Positions 30,190 to 36,502 of a stretch of DNA of 40,022 nt are shown one piece after another. Source of the DNA: Acidimicrobiales bacterium (GTDB lineage: Bacteria > Actinomycetota > Acidimicrobiia > Acidimicrobiales > SZUA-35); NCBI GenBank assembly GCA_041584095.1, contig JBFHEP010000002.1, positions 1-40,022 of the forward strand, read 5' to 3'. The notes under the pieces are model-generated. The model did not search any database. It saw only the letters and a list, made by a program, of their open reading frames with translations, and was not told the DNA's origin. Position numbers and translations under genes: made by a program. Numbering within the stretch: position 1 is the first letter of the stretch; each line of letters begins with the position of its first letter.

Positions 30190-31338
30190 GTGAGCAACTT
30201 GACGACGGCGCTGGAGGACATCCTGGTGGTGGCGGTCGAGCAGGCCGTGGCCGCCCCCGTCTGCACGGCTCGGCTGCGGGACGCCGGAGCTCGGATCATC
30301 AAGATCGAGCGTCCCGAAGGGGATTTCGCCCGTGGCTACGACACTGCGGCCGGCGGCGACAGCTCGTATTTCGCCTGGGCCAATCACGGGAAGGAGTCGG
30401 TCGTGCTCGACTTCAAGAAGCCCGACGACGCCGCCCTGCTGAGGCGCCTGGTCGCCGCCGCGGATGTGTTCGTGCAGAACCTGGTGCCCGGTGCGCTCGA
30501 ACGTGCCGGGTTCGGATCCGCTCGCCTCCGGTCCGACCACCCTCCGCTCATCACTCTCGACATCAGCGGCTACGGCGAGTCTCCCGAGCTGGCGGACAAG
30601 AAGGCCTATGACCTCCTCGTCCAGGCCGAGAGCGGACTGATCGGGATTTCGGGCGGCCCGAACGAACTCGGTCGGATCGGGGTTTCGGTTTGCGACATCG
30701 GCACCGGGGTCACCGCCTACGGTGCCGTGTTGGAGGCGCTGCTGGCCCGAACCATGACCGGCCAAGGTCGGAGCATCCGTCTCTCGCTGTTCGACATGAT
30801 GGCCGAGTGGATGTCGGTACCCCTCGTCCAGCACGAGTACGGAGATGGCGGCCCGACCAGGGTCGGGCTTCGCCATCCGACGATTGCCCCCTACGGAGCC
30901 TACGCCACATCCGAGGGAGCTCTGACGCTCATCTCGATCCAGAACGAACGGGAGTGGGTCCGGTTGTGCGCCGAGACTCTGGCCGACCCGGACCTGGTCG
31001 ACGATCCGCGGTTCATGTCCAACAACGATCGGGTGGCGAACCGGGAGGCACTGGAGGTGGAGCTGGATCGGCGGATCCGAGCACTCGATCGGGCCGAGTT
31101 CCACCGCCGTCTCGCCGCCGCGACCATCGCCTACGGTTCGGTCAACTCGCTCGACGATCTGGCCGCCCACCCGGCGCTGCGTCGTCGTACGATTGTGAGC
31201 AGCAGCGGGACCGCCGTCGACCTGGCCGCCCACCCCGTTCGGTGGACCGACGGCGATCGAACCGACGGGTCCACCGCGGCACCCGTGGTTCCTGCAGTCG
31301 GCGAGCACACCGAAGCCGTCCGGGCGGAGTTCTCCTGA
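30190..31338 (+). CDS. family III (CaiB/BaiF-type) CoA-transferase
   Basis: GTG at 30190 (VSNLTTALEDILVVAVEQAVAAPVCTARLRDAGARIIKIERPEGDFARGY). Active-site Asp context GVSVCDIGTGV. The length (~382 aa) is typical of the family. Confidence 0.85.
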   Translation: MSNLTTALEDILVVAVEQAVAAPVCTARLRDAGARIIKIERPEGDFARGYDTAAGGDSSYFAWANHGKESVVLDFKKPDDAALLRRLVAAADVFVQNLVPGALERAGFGSARLRSDHPPLITLDISGYGESPELADKKAYDLLVQAESGLIGISGGPNELGRIGVSVCDIGTGVTAYGAVLEALLARTMTGQGRSIRLSLFDMMAEWMSVPLVQHEYGDGGPTRVGLRHPTIAPYGAYATSEGALTLISIQNEREWVRLCAETLADPDLVDDPRFMSNNDRVANREALEVELDRRIRALDRAEFHRRLAAATIAYGSVNSLDDLAAHPALRRRTIVSSSGTAVDLAAHPVRWTDGDRTDGSTAAPVVPAVGEHTEAVRAEFS

Positions 31339-31503
31339 ACCAACTGCGCCGACCGGTCGGCTCGGATGGCAAAGGGCAGAAATCTTCGACGATGCGGGAA
31401 CTTTTCCCCGCTGTATCGCGACTCAGTATTCGAACGGACAGCAAATCTTTGCTTGCGGGTGAGAACTTTCGAGTGCGGTAGAGCTGTTCGCTCCACATAG
31501 TTC

Positions 31504-31620
31504 TGACATCTGGCAGCCGGAGTTCCTCTATCCGATGAGTCGGCCTTGGACCACGCGGCGGACCTGAGGCGGGCTTATTGGCCTAAACGCAAACCGCTGA
31601 ACAATGGCTGCCAGATGTCA
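31504..31620. repeat. perfect 15-bp inverted repeat closing an 87-nt interior
   Basis: TGACATCTGGCAGCC (31504-31518) and GGCTGCCAGATGTCA (31606-31620) are exact reverse complements. Located in an ORF-less, GC-poor spacer. Confidence 0.9.
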
Positions 31621-31624
31621 CTCT

Positions 31625-31682
31625 CTCTCCGACGGCTTTCCTCCCCGGACCGATACCGGTCCTTCCTCTCGCCGTCGGAGAG
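31625..31682. repeat. nested hairpin: perfect 12-bp outer stem, pyrimidine-rich internal loops, 6-bp inner stem
   Basis: CTCTCCGACGGC (31625-31636) pairs with GCCGTCGGAGAG (31671-31682). Inside, TTTCCTCCCC precedes GGACCG-ATAC-CGGTCC (31647-31662), which is followed by TTCCTCTC. Confidence 0.9.
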
Positions 31683-31688
31683 CTGTGT

Positions 31689-31756
31689 AACCAAACTGTG
31701 TGATCGAACATCCAAGAAGAGCGGCTTCGGCCGAACCACAACTGTGGTGTATCGAA
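31689..31756 (+). repeat. two ~20-nt direct repeats flanking a C(UUCG)G tetraloop hairpin
   Basis: AACCAAACTGTGTGATCGAA (31689-31708) and AACCACAACTGTGGTGTATCGAA (31734-31756). CGGC-TTCG-GCCG lies between them at 31722-31733. The UUCG loop reads as such only on the plus strand. Confidence 0.85.
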
Positions 31757-32053
31757 TGAACGTCCTGGCGCGGGGCGTTTGTTCGCGTTTTCGGCCCGTC
31801 GCCACCCTGGTCGGCGCTCGTCAAGAAATCGGAAATACTGGCTCCGGCCTAGCGGCTGTCCACGCCTTTCCAATATCGTGGTGTGGCAAGCGTGTAGGCG
31901 CTCACTGTAGGGACAGCAATCATTCACAACGACGCCGCGATAGTCGATGAACTCCTAACCTTCCTCCAATCGGGCTCGCCGGTCGTCGACGCGCGGCTGG
32001 CCACGATCTACGCGGACGCCGACCCGGATCTTGCCGATCGGCTGCTCGACAGC

Positions 32054-32572
32054 GTGGCCGTCCAGGCCTCCCAGGGTTCGCCCTATGCCCTGCAGTTGCT
32101 TCTCAACCTCATATCGGAGCACCGGCTGGCCTACCCGGGTATCAGCCGCCACATCCTCACCCGCTCGGTGCAGGAGGATGTGGCGCAGGATGTGCTGATC
32201 GCCGTCGCCCGGTCGATCCACCGCTACCGGGGTGATTCGAAGTTCACCACCTGGCTCTACGCCGTTGCCCGGAACACGGCCGTCGCCGAGTTGCGTCGCA
32301 GCCGTTCCGCGGTCTCGTACGATGACGAGTCGAACAACGAACAGGACGCCCTGCGTTTCAGCTCCCGGGCCACCGATCGCCAGATCATTCAGACTGCCAT
32401 CGGGCAACTCCCAGCGATTTTCCGTGAAATCGTCTACCTGCGTGACGTGCAGCGAATGAGTTACGAGGACATCGCCAATCACGAAGGCATCGCCATCAAC
32501 ACCGTTCGATCCCGCCTGTCACGGGGTCGGGCGCTTCTCGCCACGGAGCTGGCGGCATTCCGAGGCCTATGA
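32054..32572 (+). CDS. ECF-type RNA polymerase sigma-70 family factor
   Basis: Region 2: EDVAQDVLIAVARSIHRYRGDSKFTTWLYAVARNTAVAELRR. Region 4: REIVYLRDVQRMSYEDIANHEGIAINTVRSRLSRGRALL. GTG at 32054 is the first canonical start, but the frame is open and codon-biased from about 31920. The stop overlaps the kinase ATG (ATGA). Confidence 0.85.
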   Translation: MAVQASQGSPYALQLLLNLISEHRLAYPGISRHILTRSVQEDVAQDVLIAVARSIHRYRGDSKFTTWLYAVARNTAVAELRRSRSAVSYDDESNNEQDALRFSSRATDRQIIQTAIGQLPAIFREIVYLRDVQRMSYEDIANHEGIAINTVRSRLSRGRALLATELAAFRGL

Positions 32573-33507
32573 CGAATCTGCCGACCGCACGTTCGAAGCG
32601 AATCGACAAGTATCGAATCATCGCGCCGATCGGTGTCGGCTCATCGGCTACGGTCTACCGGGCGATCGACGAGTCGAGCGGCTACGAGGTGGCGATCAAA
32701 GTGCTGGCGGAGAACCTCAGCCTGCTACCGGAACCGCGTCAGCGGTTCTACGACGAGGCGGAGATTCTCCGAGGGATCGACAGCCCGGCCATCGCCCGGA
32801 TCTACCACGTGGGCGAGACCGACACCGGGCAGCCGTTCATGGTGCTCGAGCTGGCCGACAGAGGTGACCTGCGTCGCCGAGTCGATGAGCTGCGAGCCCG
32901 GGCCGAGTCGATCGACTGGACCGATCTCTGGGCCCTGGGCCGTCACCTGCACGAGGCACTCAGCTCGTTACATCAGCGCGGCATCATTCACCGCGACGTC
33001 TCGCCGGGCAATATCCTCATCCAACATCGCAGCGAACTGACCGGCCTGTCGGCGGCCAACCTGCTCGAACCAGGGGAACGATTCATCCTGTCCGACCTCG
33101 GCTTCGCCAAAGATCTGGAGTGGGCCTCGGGCTTCACCGCCGGCGGCGGAACGAGGGGTTTCGCCTCCCCCGAGCAGTTGAATGAGGTGACCGTCGTCGA
33201 TCATCGAACCGACATCTTCAGCGCCTCCGCCGTGATCGACTGGACGGTTTACGACGGTCCGTTCGCGAAGGCGCTCGAACCGTTTCTGCTGAAGGGCCTG
33301 GCCGACGATCCGGACGATCGCTTCGAGACGATCGACGAGTGGTACGACGCGTTCGTCGATGCCATGGATGTCATCGAGTCGTGGGACGACCCGCCCCGCC
33401 GAGGCGGTTGGCTTCCCGCAGCGCTCGTGTTCATCGCCGGAATCGCTCTCATCGTGCTGGTCTTGTGGTTCACCGACTCGCTGAGCGAGCTGATCGACGC
33501 GCTGTGA
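32569..33507 (+). CDS. Hanks-type Ser/Thr protein kinase, tail-anchored, no extracellular sensor domain
   Basis: Motifs: IGVGSSATVY (Gly loop), VAIKVL, DEAEIL, HRDVSPGNILI, SDLGFAK, GTRGFASPEQ. One C-terminal TM helix (WLPAALVFIAGIALIVLVLWF) is followed by only 11 residues. Confidence 0.88.
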   Translation: MTNLPTARSKRIDKYRIIAPIGVGSSATVYRAIDESSGYEVAIKVLAENLSLLPEPRQRFYDEAEILRGIDSPAIARIYHVGETDTGQPFMVLELADRGDLRRRVDELRARAESIDWTDLWALGRHLHEALSSLHQRGIIHRDVSPGNILIQHRSELTGLSAANLLEPGERFILSDLGFAKDLEWASGFTAGGGTRGFASPEQLNEVTVVDHRTDIFSASAVIDWTVYDGPFAKALEPFLLKGLADDPDDRFETIDEWYDAFVDAMDVIESWDDPPRRGGWLPAALVFIAGIALIVLVLWFTDSLSELIDAL

Positions 33508-33570
33508 GGTTGACCGGTCGGGGGACGAGCAGCGAGCCACGAGGAGCAGGGACCGCAGCGCCGGAACGCC

Positions 33571-33601
33571 CATGTGCCCGGACCAACGGCCCGGGCACAT
33601 G
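33571..33601 (+). terminator. strong hairpin 63 nt downstream of the kinase stop, candidate U-tail-less terminator
   Basis: CATGTGCCCGG (33571-33581), loop ACCAACGGC, CCGGGCACATG (33591-33601). The stem is a perfect 11 bp. There is no T-run after it. Confidence 0.45.
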
Positions 33602-33759
33602 TCCAACTCCGGAAGCTCACGCGGTATCTTCCTGAACGCCACATGGGCGTTTCCTGGTGAGAAAATCGGGGAGTTCCGAGGTTGGAGTTCGACTATCGAT
33701 CGCTGCTCAGTTATCTGTCACAACGTTCGAAAGGAGAACCTTCTCCTGAGTCCTGGTTT

Positions 33760-33850
33760 GCGGCGGATCATCCACAGAGATACCTGTTGTCTCAGCGTGC
33801 GTTACCGGAAATCCCTTACGGGAAATCTCAGTGTGCGGCAGATCATCCAC
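33760..33850. repeat. direct repeats GCGGCrGATCATCCAC (x2) interleaved with TCTCAGyGTGCG (x2) and GGAAATC (x2)
   Basis: GCGGCGGATCATCCAC at 33760-33775 and GCGGCAGATCATCCAC at 33835-33850. TCTCAGCGTGCG at 33790-33801 and TCTCAGTGTGCG at 33826-33837. GGAAATC at 33807-33813 and 33821-33827. Confidence 0.85.
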
Positions 33851-34408
33851 GAATAGGGTTCCGGAGGTGGTCCTCCTTGTCGGCGGGTGAGGTGTCGCTC
33901 TGTCGTGCGACAACGCATAGATTAGCGCCTCATCAGCATCTGTCAACCTGAAACCACCAGCAGCCCCAAACTTCGATACCTGAGGACGTTGTCATCGCGA
34001 TGAAATATTACGACTCTACGGACCCTGTTTCAGCTGGTGGTCGCGTGTCATGTCGCCCTCGCTTCGACGTCGTTCCGTAAGATTGGCCGGTCACCGCCGG
34101 CGGGGTGCTGAAGGGGACGGTGTCGCTACGACGCCATCAAATCCTCCGGTTGGACTACAACATTCAAGCTGCTGCCGCTAGGCTCGGTGCAGACGTTCGG
34201 CGATTCAGGCTGCCGCCCAACCCGCCAAACGGCTCGTAACGGTGACTAGAGGAACCAGGACGTCGGCTCAAAGAAGGTCCCACGGCAGGGAGGTCCGAGG
34301 ACCGGAGTGAGCGGACGAAGAACAAAGCGGTCCAAGAGGGACGTTTGCCGCAACGACCGAACGGGTTCGATGCGGGGGCGGACGGTCGGAACGTTCAGGA
34401 GTTGATGC

Positions 34409-36502
34409 ATGGTGGAGCTGAACGAGGAGGCGAGGGACTACCTCACCGGCGACAATGCAAAGGCGGCACTGATGTCGCAATACGGATCGCCGACGATCGC
34501 CTCCACCTCCTCCGCCGTCGACTACGGCTTGCCGTTGGTGGTTGCCGGCCTGAAACGCCGGGCAGAGGATTCGGCAGGCATCGTCAATCTCCTGAATCTG
34601 GTTCGCTCGCTCGACACGAGCCAGCTCGGCACGGAGGCGATGTGGAGCCGAACCTCCCACCGCGCGGTCATGGGCCCGGACCTGACCGAGATTCTGTTTC
34701 GTGACCAGAACGGCCAAGGCACCCACGAAACCGTGATCGCCAAGCTGGCCGAGCGGGCCCGGGTCGACTTCGAAACCGCGCAGGGCATTCTCGGCTCCTG
34801 CACGTGGATGCTGCTGGCCGTGCTCGTCAATCGCTACAGCCGTTCCCTCGACCGGCAGACGCTGCTGCGGGTGGCCGACGAGGAACGCCGGCTGCTCTCG
34901 GAGCAGGGGTGGGATCCGTGGATCCGCGCCGTCGAGTGGGAAACCAACGCAGTCGGAGGCAGCGATACCCTCTACGTCGATTCCCTTCCCACTCCACCGA
35001 GAACCACCACCGCCAGTACCGGGGACCGCTCGGGCCGGTACCCGCCTCCGGTGAGCCGGGGCGATCGCAGCGATGGGCCCGCACATTCTTTTGCGCCCGA
35101 ACCCCCCAACACCGGCCGCCGGTCGGAAGGACACGAGGCGGCGGGTCTGGGCGGAGTCGGCCTCGGCGGATATGCACCACCCGAACGCCCCGGCCGTGGC
35201 CCCGCACCGATCGAGTACGGCGGCGGACGTGGACCCGACTATCCCGATCCGCGCCTCGCGTCGGGCCGCCGTCGCCCGATGACCGCGCCCCAGCCGGCGC
35301 ATCGGCATACCCGGCCCCGAGCACCGATGCCCGAGCCGAAGCCTCGACGGTGGCCGATAGCGGTGGCATTGGCCGCCGTGCTGCTCTTGGCCGGCGGTGT
35401 CTGGTGGCTCATCGGCGGCGGTGATGACACCGATGTCGACTCCGCCCAAGGCGAAGCGGTCGACTCGGCGGTCACGGCAACCGACGAGGCGTCCGGCTCC
35501 GACGAGTCGACCGACGCCGCGGCGGCGGAGTCCGGCGATGGCGCAGCCCTGGCCACCGACTACACCGGAATCGTCACCATGGACGTTCCCATGCGCGACA
35601 TCTTCACCGGCGAGACCACCAACGCAACAGGCAGCGTGACCTTCACCATCGATGCCAACACCGGCGAGGCGTGCGCCCTGGTGGCGACTGACGGGGTTTC
35701 GGGTCCGTACGCTTCACACATCCACCTTGGCGCCTTCCGGGAACGGGGTCCGGTGGTTGTGAATTTCGGCGACATGAACGACGGGGTCGAGAAGTGTGTC
35801 GCCAACGATCTCGACGACATCAACGAGATATTGGCCGATCGGTCCGAGTACTACGGTGAGATGCACGACGTCGGCGGTGAGTACACCGTGCGCGGACAGC
35901 TGTCGGAAGCCGATCCGTTCGATGATCGGCGCGACCCGGCTCTCCTTCCCGACCTTGACGGCGGCTCGGCACTGTTCGACACCGACCCCGACCCGCTTCT
36001 GAACGGCGCCCGCGTCCGATTCGAGGGGTCGACGCTGGTGGCCACCGGCGAGGTCGACAGCCAGGAGGTCCTCGACGCCCTCATCTCGGCGCTCGAGGCA
36101 TCGGGTGTGACGGTTGTGAACGAATTGCTGGTGGTGCCGGGCTCGCCGCCGCCGTCCGGGCGGTTCATCGCCAACCAAGGACTCACGTTCGGGGTCGGCA
36201 GTGATCAGCTCGAAGGCGATAACAGTGCGGTGCTGGAAACGATGGCGAAGGTTCTCGCCGCCAATCCGGATTGGAAACTCACCGTTGCCGGCCACACCGA
36301 CAGCACCGGGTCAAGGGTCGACAATCTCGAACTGTCCCAGCGCCGGGCGATCACCGTTCGTACGGCACTCGAGGAGCTGGGTGTCGCCACCGATGTGCTG
36401 AAGATCGCCGGCTACGGTCCGGAGCAGCCGATCGGCGACAACAGCACGGCCGAGGGACGTCGCCGGAACCGGCGCATCGAGTTCGTCATCGACCCCACCT
36501 GA
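34409..36502 (+). CDS. bitopic envelope protein: DUF937-like cytoplasmic domain, Pro/Arg/Gly linker, TM, CHRD-like, BON-like and OmpA-C peptidoglycan-binding domains
   Basis: ATG at 34409, 7 nt after AGGAG. TM helix: WPIAVALAAVLLLAGGVWWLIGG. CHRD-like: GSVTFTIDANTGEACALVATDGVSGPYASHIHLGAFRERGPVVVNF. BON-like: VRFEGSTLVATGEVDSQEVLDALISALEASGVTVVNELLV. OmpA-C: FGVGSDQLEGDNSAVLETMAKVLAANPDWKLTVAGHTDSTGS...NLELSQRRA...NRRIEFVI. Confidence 0.8.
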   Translation: MVELNEEARDYLTGDNAKAALMSQYGSPTIASTSSAVDYGLPLVVAGLKRRAEDSAGIVNLLNLVRSLDTSQLGTEAMWSRTSHRAVMGPDLTEILFRDQNGQGTHETVIAKLAERARVDFETAQGILGSCTWMLLAVLVNRYSRSLDRQTLLRVADEERRLLSEQGWDPWIRAVEWETNAVGGSDTLYVDSLPTPPRTTTASTGDRSGRYPPPVSRGDRSDGPAHSFAPEPPNTGRRSEGHEAAGLGGVGLGGYAPPERPGRGPAPIEYGGGRGPDYPDPRLASGRRRPMTAPQPAHRHTRPRAPMPEPKPRRWPIAVALAAVLLLAGGVWWLIGGGDDTDVDSAQGEAVDSAVTATDEASGSDESTDAAAAESGDGAALATDYTGIVTMDVPMRDIFTGETTNATGSVTFTIDANTGEACALVATDGVSGPYASHIHLGAFRERGPVVVNFGDMNDGVEKCVANDLDDINEILADRSEYYGEMHDVGGEYTVRGQLSEADPFDDRRDPALLPDLDGGSALFDTDPDPLLNGARVRFEGSTLVATGEVDSQEVLDALISALEASGVTVVNELLVVPGSPPPSGRFIANQGLTFGVGSDQLEGDNSAVLETMAKVLAANPDWKLTVAGHTDSTGSRVDNLELSQRRAITVRTALEELGVATDVLKIAGYGPEQPIGDNSTAEGRRRNRRIEFVIDPT

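Follow-up and report, generated by a model that had tools for sequence, protein, structure and literature searches.

A conserved actinobacterial gene pair for an ECF sigma factor and a Hanks-type Ser/Thr kinase without a co-encoded anti-sigma factor

Gene pair and its distribution

In a stretch of high-GC DNA (about 66% GC) from an uncultured member of the Acidimicrobiales (assembly GCA_041584095.1, contig JBFHEP010000002.1, positions 1 to 40,022), a gene for an extracytoplasmic function (ECF) sigma factor is directly followed by a gene for a Hanks-type Ser/Thr kinase. We refer to the whole stretch of 40,022 nucleotides (nt) as the window; its nearest public relatives are metagenome-assembled genomes labelled Acidimicrobiia or Acidimicrobiales. 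Both genes, like the other genes and annotated elements of the locus described below, lie on the forward (+) strand. The sigma factor gene, delimited by comparative genomics and Pfam matches, occupies 31922-32572 and encodes 216 amino acids from a proposed ATT start, and the kinase gene, assigned from Pfam and an AlphaFold2 model, occupies 32569-33507 and encodes a tail-anchored protein of 312 residues. The two genes share an ATGA (32569-32572), in which the sigma TGA stop (32570-32572) overlaps the kinase ATG (32569-32571), an arrangement that an initial sequence-only reading of the window had reported and that can be followed directly in the letters. The same type of overlap is found in loci L001-L007, L026 and L033, and in most of the remaining loci the two genes are separated by 2-16 nt.

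The sequence-only reading had further described the locus as an ECF sigma/Ser-Thr kinase module lacking an anti-sigma factor of its own, and this description is supported. No open reading frame with an HxxxCxxC motif or a Pfam anti-sigma domain follows the kinase gene, the 901 bp downstream of it being non-coding, and inspection of this spacer and of the next gene revealed neither a class I/ZAS anti-sigma domain nor HxxxCxxC in the neighbouring reading frames. The gene after the kinase matches only DUF937 (weakly, at the N-terminus, E 0.0012), CHRD and OmpA.

When the sigma factor alone was used as query against public genomes, 22 Acidimicrobiales loci were recovered, every one with the kinase directly downstream and most with a gap of -4 to +16 nt; the two genes are likewise adjacent in all 12 of the relatives' loci. 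Of 25 genomes belonging to the same genus, three lack the pair altogether and 22 carry the two genes next to each other. Comparison of the lists of sigma matches (at E <1e-20) and kinase matches showed that about 42 of 47 sigma matches adjoin a kinase match, paralogous cassettes included, of which a single genome may hold up to 6-7; sigma and kinase have been duplicated as a unit. A pair that proved not to be conserved would have spoken against the original proposal, and adjacency is instead strict across the genus and the Acidimicrobiales loci. Six genomes of this genus (G010, G016, G017, G020, G021 and G023) carry three to seven paralogous cassettes each, in which the sigma factor is without the N-terminal extension described below and the catalytic loop of the kinase has Lys, Ser or Thr at its variable position. 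The family, actinobacterial and centred on one Acidimicrobiales genus, is rarely met outside the order, in 3 of 300 Actinomycetota genomes sampled. Where it does occur, as in Nesterenkonia haasae and on several metagenomic contigs of actinobacteria, the sigma gene again precedes the kinase gene in an operon whose stop and start overlap.

Features of the sigma factor and the kinase

The sigma factor matches Pfam Sigma70_r2 (E about 9e-12, residues 76-128) and Sigma70_r4_2 (E about 5e-14, residues 153-206). With sigma-2 and sigma-4 domains, no sigma-3, and AlgU, RpoE, SigE and SigW as best matches in the Protein Data Bank (PDB), it belongs to the ECF (group 4) sigma factors; the same four proteins are the fold matches of its structural model. 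In NCBIfam, only the generic ECF superfamily model TIGR02937 is reached, with 80 bits against a cut-off of 42.9. The acidic residues of region 2.2 noted in the sequence-only reading (SVQEDVAQDVL) are indeed retained: conservation of E85 and D86 reaches at least 90% among 12 aligned orthologues, the protein reads VQED at the positions aligned to DAED, and all cassette sigma factors examined keep ED, EE or DD there. In EcfP and the ECF43 group, by comparison, region 2.2 is without the acidic DAED and contains the phospho-acceptor (PMC8999054). The window sigma shares with ECF43-type factors the adjacent Hanks kinase and the lack of a co-encoded anti-sigma factor, but not the replacement of the acidic DAED residues by Ser/Thr. 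Because the acidic residues are retained, the sigma is, as judged from region 2.2, not an EcfP/ECF43-type switch, and the earlier caution that this mechanism could not simply be assumed was well placed.

Regions 2.1-2.2 had been suggested as the place to look for a phospho-acceptor. Our alignments point to a better candidate where the linker meets sigma-4, an R-x-S/T-S motif that is nearly universal. In the window this is R145-F-S147-S148 (32354-32365), identified as a candidate phospho-acceptor from its conservation and from its location, in the AlphaFold2 model, where the disordered linker meets the first sigma-4 helix (the sigma-2/sigma-4 linker, residues 131-146, has a pLDDT <50). In an alignment of 90 sequences S148 never varies, and conservation is at least 90% for R145 and S147. 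The sigma factors of Nesterenkonia and Nocardiopsis also have R-x-[S/T]-S, Micromonospora has a degenerate R-R-T-S-V, and almost every paralogous cassette carries the motif irrespective of the residue in its kinase loop. The motif lies in the region where PknS phosphorylates EcfK (T106 being essential) and PknB phosphorylates SigH (PMC13147305).

The left boundary originally given for the sigma gene, a GTG at 32054, proved to be wrong, as the frame continues a further 132 nt upstream, where the ATT at 31922 is the likeliest start. Protein similarity spans the entire stop-to-stop frame (31898-32572) in 11 related genomes, reaching about 50 codons upstream of the first GTG, and in one relative (L003) the first ATG, GTG or TTG appears only at codon 76 of the sigma frame. 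The ATT at 31922-31924 is invariant in 11 of 11 genomes in the DNA alignment and is preceded in all 11 by a Shine-Dalgarno-like GTAGGGA/GAGGA (or GGGA) at a distance of 7-10 nt, represented in the window by TAGGGA (31908-31913), 8 nt before the ATT. In three genomes the frame is closed by a stop 3-6 codons upstream of this ATT. Within the sigma genes Ile is otherwise seldom encoded by ATT (about 10% of internal Ile codons, 14 of 144). Between relatives, synonymous differences outnumber non-synonymous ones over the 44 added codons, as they do in the rest of the gene. The locus thus combines the features of a non-AUG start, namely an invariant AUU behind a Shine-Dalgarno sequence, with no canonical codon to take its place and with a conserved coding sequence downstream of it. 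On the grounds of the invariant ATT, the Shine-Dalgarno-like sequence, the upstream stops, codon usage and coding conservation, we infer that the sigma gene most likely comprises 31922-32572, with 216 codons translated from AUU. Public gene calls for the orthologues are inconsistent (172, 196 or 226 amino acids; records P0121-P0134) and vary with the canonical start that chances to lie in frame, and those of 172 and 196 residues cut the conserved N-terminal extension short. Caution about N-terminal extensions behind non-canonical starts has been advised (PMC7826278), and the sigma gene described here provides a concrete case of an extension hidden in this manner.

Two further observations concern the region around this start. 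A GTG-TAG 'start-stop' pair (31892-31897) lies in frame with the sigma gene, 24 nt (8 codons) upstream of the ATT, and is kept in five close relatives; the sixth, L006, has TTG in place of TAG, so that its frame is open to the upstream GTG. In a deeper clade (loci L023-L034, from other Acidimicrobiales) the sigma gene begins with GTG GTT TGG CGA, 6-8 nt after a conserved (C)AATAGGGT box; the -10-like box of this clade is TAGGGT, 6-8 nt ahead of the GTG, a spacing suggestive of a leaderless mRNA. In the window's clade this arrangement has given way to a short leader with a Shine-Dalgarno sequence and an ATT start.

Read from the putative ATT, the sigma protein carries a conserved three-helix N-terminal extension (residues 1-50, 31922-32071) for which the reading frame first given was too short. 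AlphaFold2, with a model built on 90 sequences, predicts helices at residues 2-17, 20-32 and 35-50 with pLDDT values of 79-96. No Pfam family matches the extension, and in a sequence profile search matches to solved sigma structures start no earlier than profile position 40, leaving the first two helices without a solved counterpart. Two GS motifs mark this part of the protein: the conserved G18-S19 echoes G52-S53, which occupies the 'GD' place of the first helix in ordinary ECF sigma factors. The helices bearing them align in register, weakly (hhalign, E 0.014, probability 3%), and an origin of the extension by duplication of the first sigma-2 helix was not adopted on evidence of this weight. 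Orthologues of the window sigma have the extension, as do the sigma factors of Nesterenkonia and L049; the paralogous cassettes of this genus lack it, and their match to the window sigma starts only at residue ~39-42.

The kinase matches Pfam Pkinase (E 1.5e-28) and yields a confident AlphaFold2 model (pLDDT 89.5, pTM 0.82; built on 109 relatives), its nearest solved relative by both sequence and fold being the kinase domain of Mycobacterium tuberculosis PknB. The motifs listed in the sequence-only reading are in place: GVGSSA (residues 22-27), VAIK with K44 (32698-32700), the helix-C Glu (E63), DLG (33094-33102) and SPE. The catalytic loop reads HRDVSPGN (32989-33012), as had been reported, and alignment to PknB sets S145 against the Lys of HRDVKPAN. 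Between beta7 and beta8, alignment and model reveal a family-specific insert of about 16 residues, RSELTGLSAANLLEPG (33028-33075), ending in the nearly invariant E170-R171.

The loop without Lys is no one-off defect of the window kinase but a labile family trait: position 145 is Ser in 57, Thr in 24, Lys in 23 and Ala in 5 of the 109 aligned relatives, and these states interchange several times on the kinase-domain tree. Over the same 109 sequences K44, E63, H141-R142-D143, P146, N148, D176, G178 and K181 are invariant, and the activation-loop residues T190 and T195 nearly so. Measured against the Hanks kinases, the window kinase therefore has the VAIK Lys, the helix-C Glu, the HRD Asp, the catalytic-loop Asn and the DFG Asp (K44, E63, D143, N148 and D176) and lacks the catalytic-loop Lys of HRDxKxxN, for which it has S145. 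This Lys normally contacts the gamma-phosphate, as in PKA. RIO and Bud32 kinases have Ser or Thr at the equivalent position and tyrosine kinases have Ala, and loss of the Lys would therefore be compatible with phosphotransfer, probably at a lower rate. Because every other catalytic residue is fixed while position 145 varies, we consider the window kinase probably active, with a turnover that may be slow. Bacterial pseudokinases have been defined as kinases without the VAIK Lys, the HRD Asp or the DFG Asp (PMC12599244); going by these residues, all three of which are present and invariant, the window kinase is not a pseudokinase. We also looked for co-variation of position 145 with the sigma residue at the 'GD' position (S53), which is Ser in about 11 of 15 partners of Lys-less kinases and in about 3 of 9 partners of Lys-containing kinases by a rough lineage count, but several counter-examples make this unconvincing.

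The C-terminus consists of one transmembrane helix (residues 281-301) and a tail of 11 residues (33409-33504), as the sequence-only reading had it and as sequence and AlphaFold2 model agree. Most relatives are longer, at about 450-550 amino acids, and continue after the transmembrane helix with a Ser/Thr/Pro-rich linker and an ectodomain of about 110 amino acids bearing a weak Big_7 or PKD (Ig-like) signature; linker and Ig-like ectodomain are found in L008, L012 and most of L023-L034. The short tail-anchored form is limited to the window's clade and one sister clade. Since most relatives carry the Ig-like ectodomain, the distribution of the two forms identifies the absence of a sensor domain as a derived loss. 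The description of a 'minimal, sensor-less' kinase is thus accurate in that there is no ectodomain here, but it does not apply to the basic design of the family, the loss having occurred within a subclade.

Flanking sequences and the neighbouring gene

Upstream of the sigma gene, conservation outlines a putative promoter-like element (31849-31879) composed of CTAGCGG, 16 nt, and AATATCGT, with a -10-like TATCGT at 31874-31879. In most family loci the region ahead of the sigma gene conserves the pattern CT[AG]G[CT] (also written CT[AG]GC), 17-19 nt, AATAnnnT. A regulon search in four genomes with CTRGY-N17-19-AATANNNT gave no enrichment over a reversed-pattern control, and for this reason no regulon is proposed. 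The 583-bp upstream spacer (31339-31921) also contains blocks that are invariant in 7 genomes, among them a long hairpin, in which TCCGACGGC (31628-31636) pairs with GCCGTCGGA (31671-31679), and a palindrome, AACGTCC-N6-GGGCGTT (31759-31779), followed by a T-rich stretch. This could be an operator, a terminator or a small RNA. An invariant GAAC..CGTT block was considered as an ECF-type promoter and rejected, as it is confined to the closest clade, reads AAAC in two relatives and is in reality the palindrome just described. A search of 31300-34500 against Rfam returned no family match.

Downstream of the kinase gene, a perfect 11-bp hairpin (33571-33601), with compensatory changes in relatives (columns 16-49), is probably either the operon terminator or the 5' stem of a neighbouring leader RNA. 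The 901-bp spacer holds a block of about 450 nt (33558-34011) that is conserved better than the flanking genes in 9 loci. The RNAalifold structure predicted for this block has 73 pairs, of which 19 show compensatory double changes, and nothing in Rfam 15 matches it. The block always lies about 400 nt upstream of the gene with DUF937, CHRD and OmpA matches, also in genomes without the sigma and kinase genes. In the window this gene (34409-36502) encodes a 697-amino-acid single-pass membrane protein with the weak DUF937 match in a cytoplasmic part of about 300 residues and CHRD and OmpA outside, and homologues occur across the genus, sometimes in several copies.

We considered and rejected a composite system made up of the sigma-kinase pair, the spacer RNA and the CHRD-OmpA gene: in G015 the RNA and the 697-amino-acid gene occur together without sigma or kinase, in G001 they lie 3-4 kb from the kinase, and in G009 and G014 the 697-amino-acid gene is about 21-30 kb away from it. 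As RNA and gene travel independently of the sigma-kinase pair, they form a separate module outside it, probably a gene with a long structured 5' leader that is a candidate novel RNA. A fission event by which the ectodomain lost from the kinase would now reside within the 697-amino-acid protein was likewise rejected, there being no similarity between this protein and the weakly Big_7/PKD-like ectodomain.

Control of the sigma factor and comparison with known systems

How the kinase might act on its neighbour can be considered in the light of these features. We rate the chances as slightly better than even that the kinase directly controls its sigma factor by phosphorylation, most likely at R-x-S-S, and so takes the place of an anti-sigma factor as the dedicated regulator. 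The sigma factor would be translated at a low level from its AUU codon and the kinase would be made by coupled re-initiation at the ATGA overlap, tying the amounts of the two proteins to each other. The kinase, catalytically competent despite the Ser in place of the catalytic-loop Lys, would then phosphorylate the sigma factor, most likely at R-F-S147-S148 where the flexible linker meets sigma-4, and possibly also act on the GS motifs of the N-terminal extension. Phosphorylation would alter how well the sigma factor engages core RNA polymerase; we infer both the acceptor site and the direction of this effect. The logic would be that of the second site in EcfK (T106) and not the region 2.2 logic of EcfP, which we set aside in view of the retained acidic residues of region 2.2; for kinase-linked ECF groups with DAED-like residues, the use of other sites has been predicted (PMC8999054). 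With the Ig-like domain lost in this subclade, any signal would have to come from the membrane, the cytoplasm or a partner protein.

Several points weigh against this proposal. A sigma factor with the acidic ED may bind core polymerase unphosphorylated, in which case another restraint would be needed. Kinase turnover may be slow, as the 109-sequence alignment contains no compensating basic residue that separates the S/T/A-type from the K-type kinases and as some relatives have Ala at position 145. The idea that S147 stands in for an acidic residue of ordinary ECF sigma factors has weak and mixed support: about half of the other 15 ECF-like sigma factors of this genome, none of which adjoins a kinase, have Glu or Asp at the S147-aligned position, but RpoE and SigW have Ser there, in linker alignments that are unreliable. 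Finally, a 316-amino-acid frame on contig C21 of the same genome (- strand) encodes an ECF-like sigma factor with RQLSS at the motif position and no kinase within 1.5 kb.

The best-placed alternative, though one we consider clearly less likely, is that the kinase is mainly a membrane-tethered sigma-binding protein, that is, a kinase-fold anti-sigma factor, which would hold the sigma factor perhaps through the three-helix extension and release it upon nucleotide binding or slow (auto)phosphorylation. Such a role would meet the need for an inhibitor that arises from an intact acidic region 2.2 and the absence of an anti-sigma factor, and the stop/start overlap and tail anchor resemble those of typical sigma/anti-sigma operons. 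It would furthermore give a role to an extension that is conserved, predicted to fold and otherwise without a known role, and the tolerance of position 145 for Lys, Ser, Thr and even Ala would reflect relaxed constraint where fast turnover is not required. All residues for ATP binding and phosphotransfer other than that at position 145 are nevertheless invariant, including the arginine of the RD motif, and the activation-loop Thr residues are nearly so, which is hard to square with a pure binder, and paralogous and more distant cassettes without the extension still keep the kinase. We also know of no Hanks-fold anti-sigma factor that has been demonstrated.

Somewhat less probable again is that the kinase is co-transcribed cargo with substrates other than the sigma factor, the latter being controlled elsewhere (for instance through its transcription, an AUU-limited translation or an unlinked anti-sigma factor) and driving expression of the kinase. 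Autoregulation of the sigma operon is common among ECF sigma factors (PMC7826278), the sigma gene here has a conserved promoter-like element in front of it, and the sigma factor looks intrinsically competent at region 2.2. Direct partnership is nonetheless favoured by the strict co-inheritance, the duplication as a unit and the R-x-S/T-S motif shared across different kinases, and since the neighbouring gene and its leader RNA are independent of the pair, no other conserved substrate gene is linked to it. A little further down the scale, and in our estimation improbable, comes a combination in which the kinase would be anti-sigma factor and activator in one, docking the three-helix domain at the membrane and releasing the sigma factor by slow phosphorylation of R-x-S-S, with AUU start and ATGA overlap fixing a low and equal dose of both proteins. 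If true, a kinase fold would here serve as an anti-sigma factor that carries its own timer, and no such class of regulator has so far been demonstrated. That the kinase is a decaying or inactive and dispensable remnant, as the joint loss of K145 and the ectodomain might suggest, is very hard to credit, given an intact frame and 87-95% protein identity among close relatives, catalytic residues invariant over 109 sequences, and a Lys-less state found in about 80% of the family, full-length sensor-bearing members included.

Direct control by phosphorylation, as we propose it, would extend a short list. Hanks kinases have been shown to phosphorylate sigma factors directly in only a few cases, namely the ECF43 factors EcfP and EcfK and M. 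tuberculosis SigH, where no role of this phosphorylation is known, and reviews hold that kinase-linked groups with an acidic region 2.2 must work differently and are uncharacterised. The family described here is well suited to a clean test, being a cassette of two genes that are duplicated together and carrying a nearly universal candidate phospho-motif, along with natural variation (Lys, Ser, Thr or Ala) at a supposedly essential kinase residue and natural versions with and without the sensor domain and with and without the N-terminal extension. The pair is a real, strongly conserved and unstudied variant of the known ECF sigma/Hanks kinase design, the new points being the putative AUU-initiated three-helix extension, the R-x-S/T-S motif, the variable loop residue and the derived loss of the sensor.

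Individual elements of the locus have counterparts in well-studied systems. In Escherichia coli infC, as proposed here, a conserved non-canonical AUU start is preceded by a Shine-Dalgarno sequence. AUU starts of the infC type give low, IF3-sensitive translation; in the window the AUU start is proposed from comparison between genomes, and any regulatory use of it is speculation. The kinase domain is closest in structure to that of M. tuberculosis PknB (PDB 1MRU, 1O6Y and 5U94), with catalytic loops that align residue for residue, but PknB has HRDVKPAN and PASTA sensor domains where the window kinase has HRDVSPGN, a 16-residue insert before beta8 and, beyond the membrane, a tail of only 11 residues.

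Among sigma/kinase pairs, EcfP-PknT of Vibrio parahaemolyticus (ECF43; reviewed in PMC8999054) likewise has a kinase in place of an anti-sigma factor. EcfP, however, is intrinsically inactive, with STTA for DAED and a Thr that becomes phosphorylated, whereas the window sigma has VQED. EcfK-PknS of Xanthomonas citri (ECF43; PMC13147305) shares the ECF sigma factor beside a transmembrane Hanks kinase and the lack of an anti-sigma factor. The residues of EcfK that PknS phosphorylates are T51 and sites in the linker, T106 being essential (PMC13147305), and these linker sites (T104-S110) fall in the region of R-x-S-S in the window sigma. The two systems differ in that EcfK requires T51 in a region 2.2 without the acidic DAED, whereas the window sigma keeps E-D, and in that PknS is described as a typical kinase of the Hanks type with a periplasmic TPR domain, whereas the window kinase has no ectodomain, a Ser for the loop Lys and a predicted phosphorylation activity. 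Kinase-associated groups in the ECF Hub comprise ECF59-62, ECF217, ECF267 and ECF283 and subgroups of ECF27, ECF40 and ECF210 (PMC7826278). Compared by their group descriptions, these resemble the window family in having a conserved kinase neighbour, usually no anti-sigma factor and, in some, DAED-like residues. The window family, for its part, is actinobacterial and mostly from one Acidimicrobiales genus, and in NCBIfam it reaches only the generic ECF model. N-terminal extensions, too, have a precedent among such sigma factors, having arisen within a kinase-regulated ECF lineage (PMC7671368).

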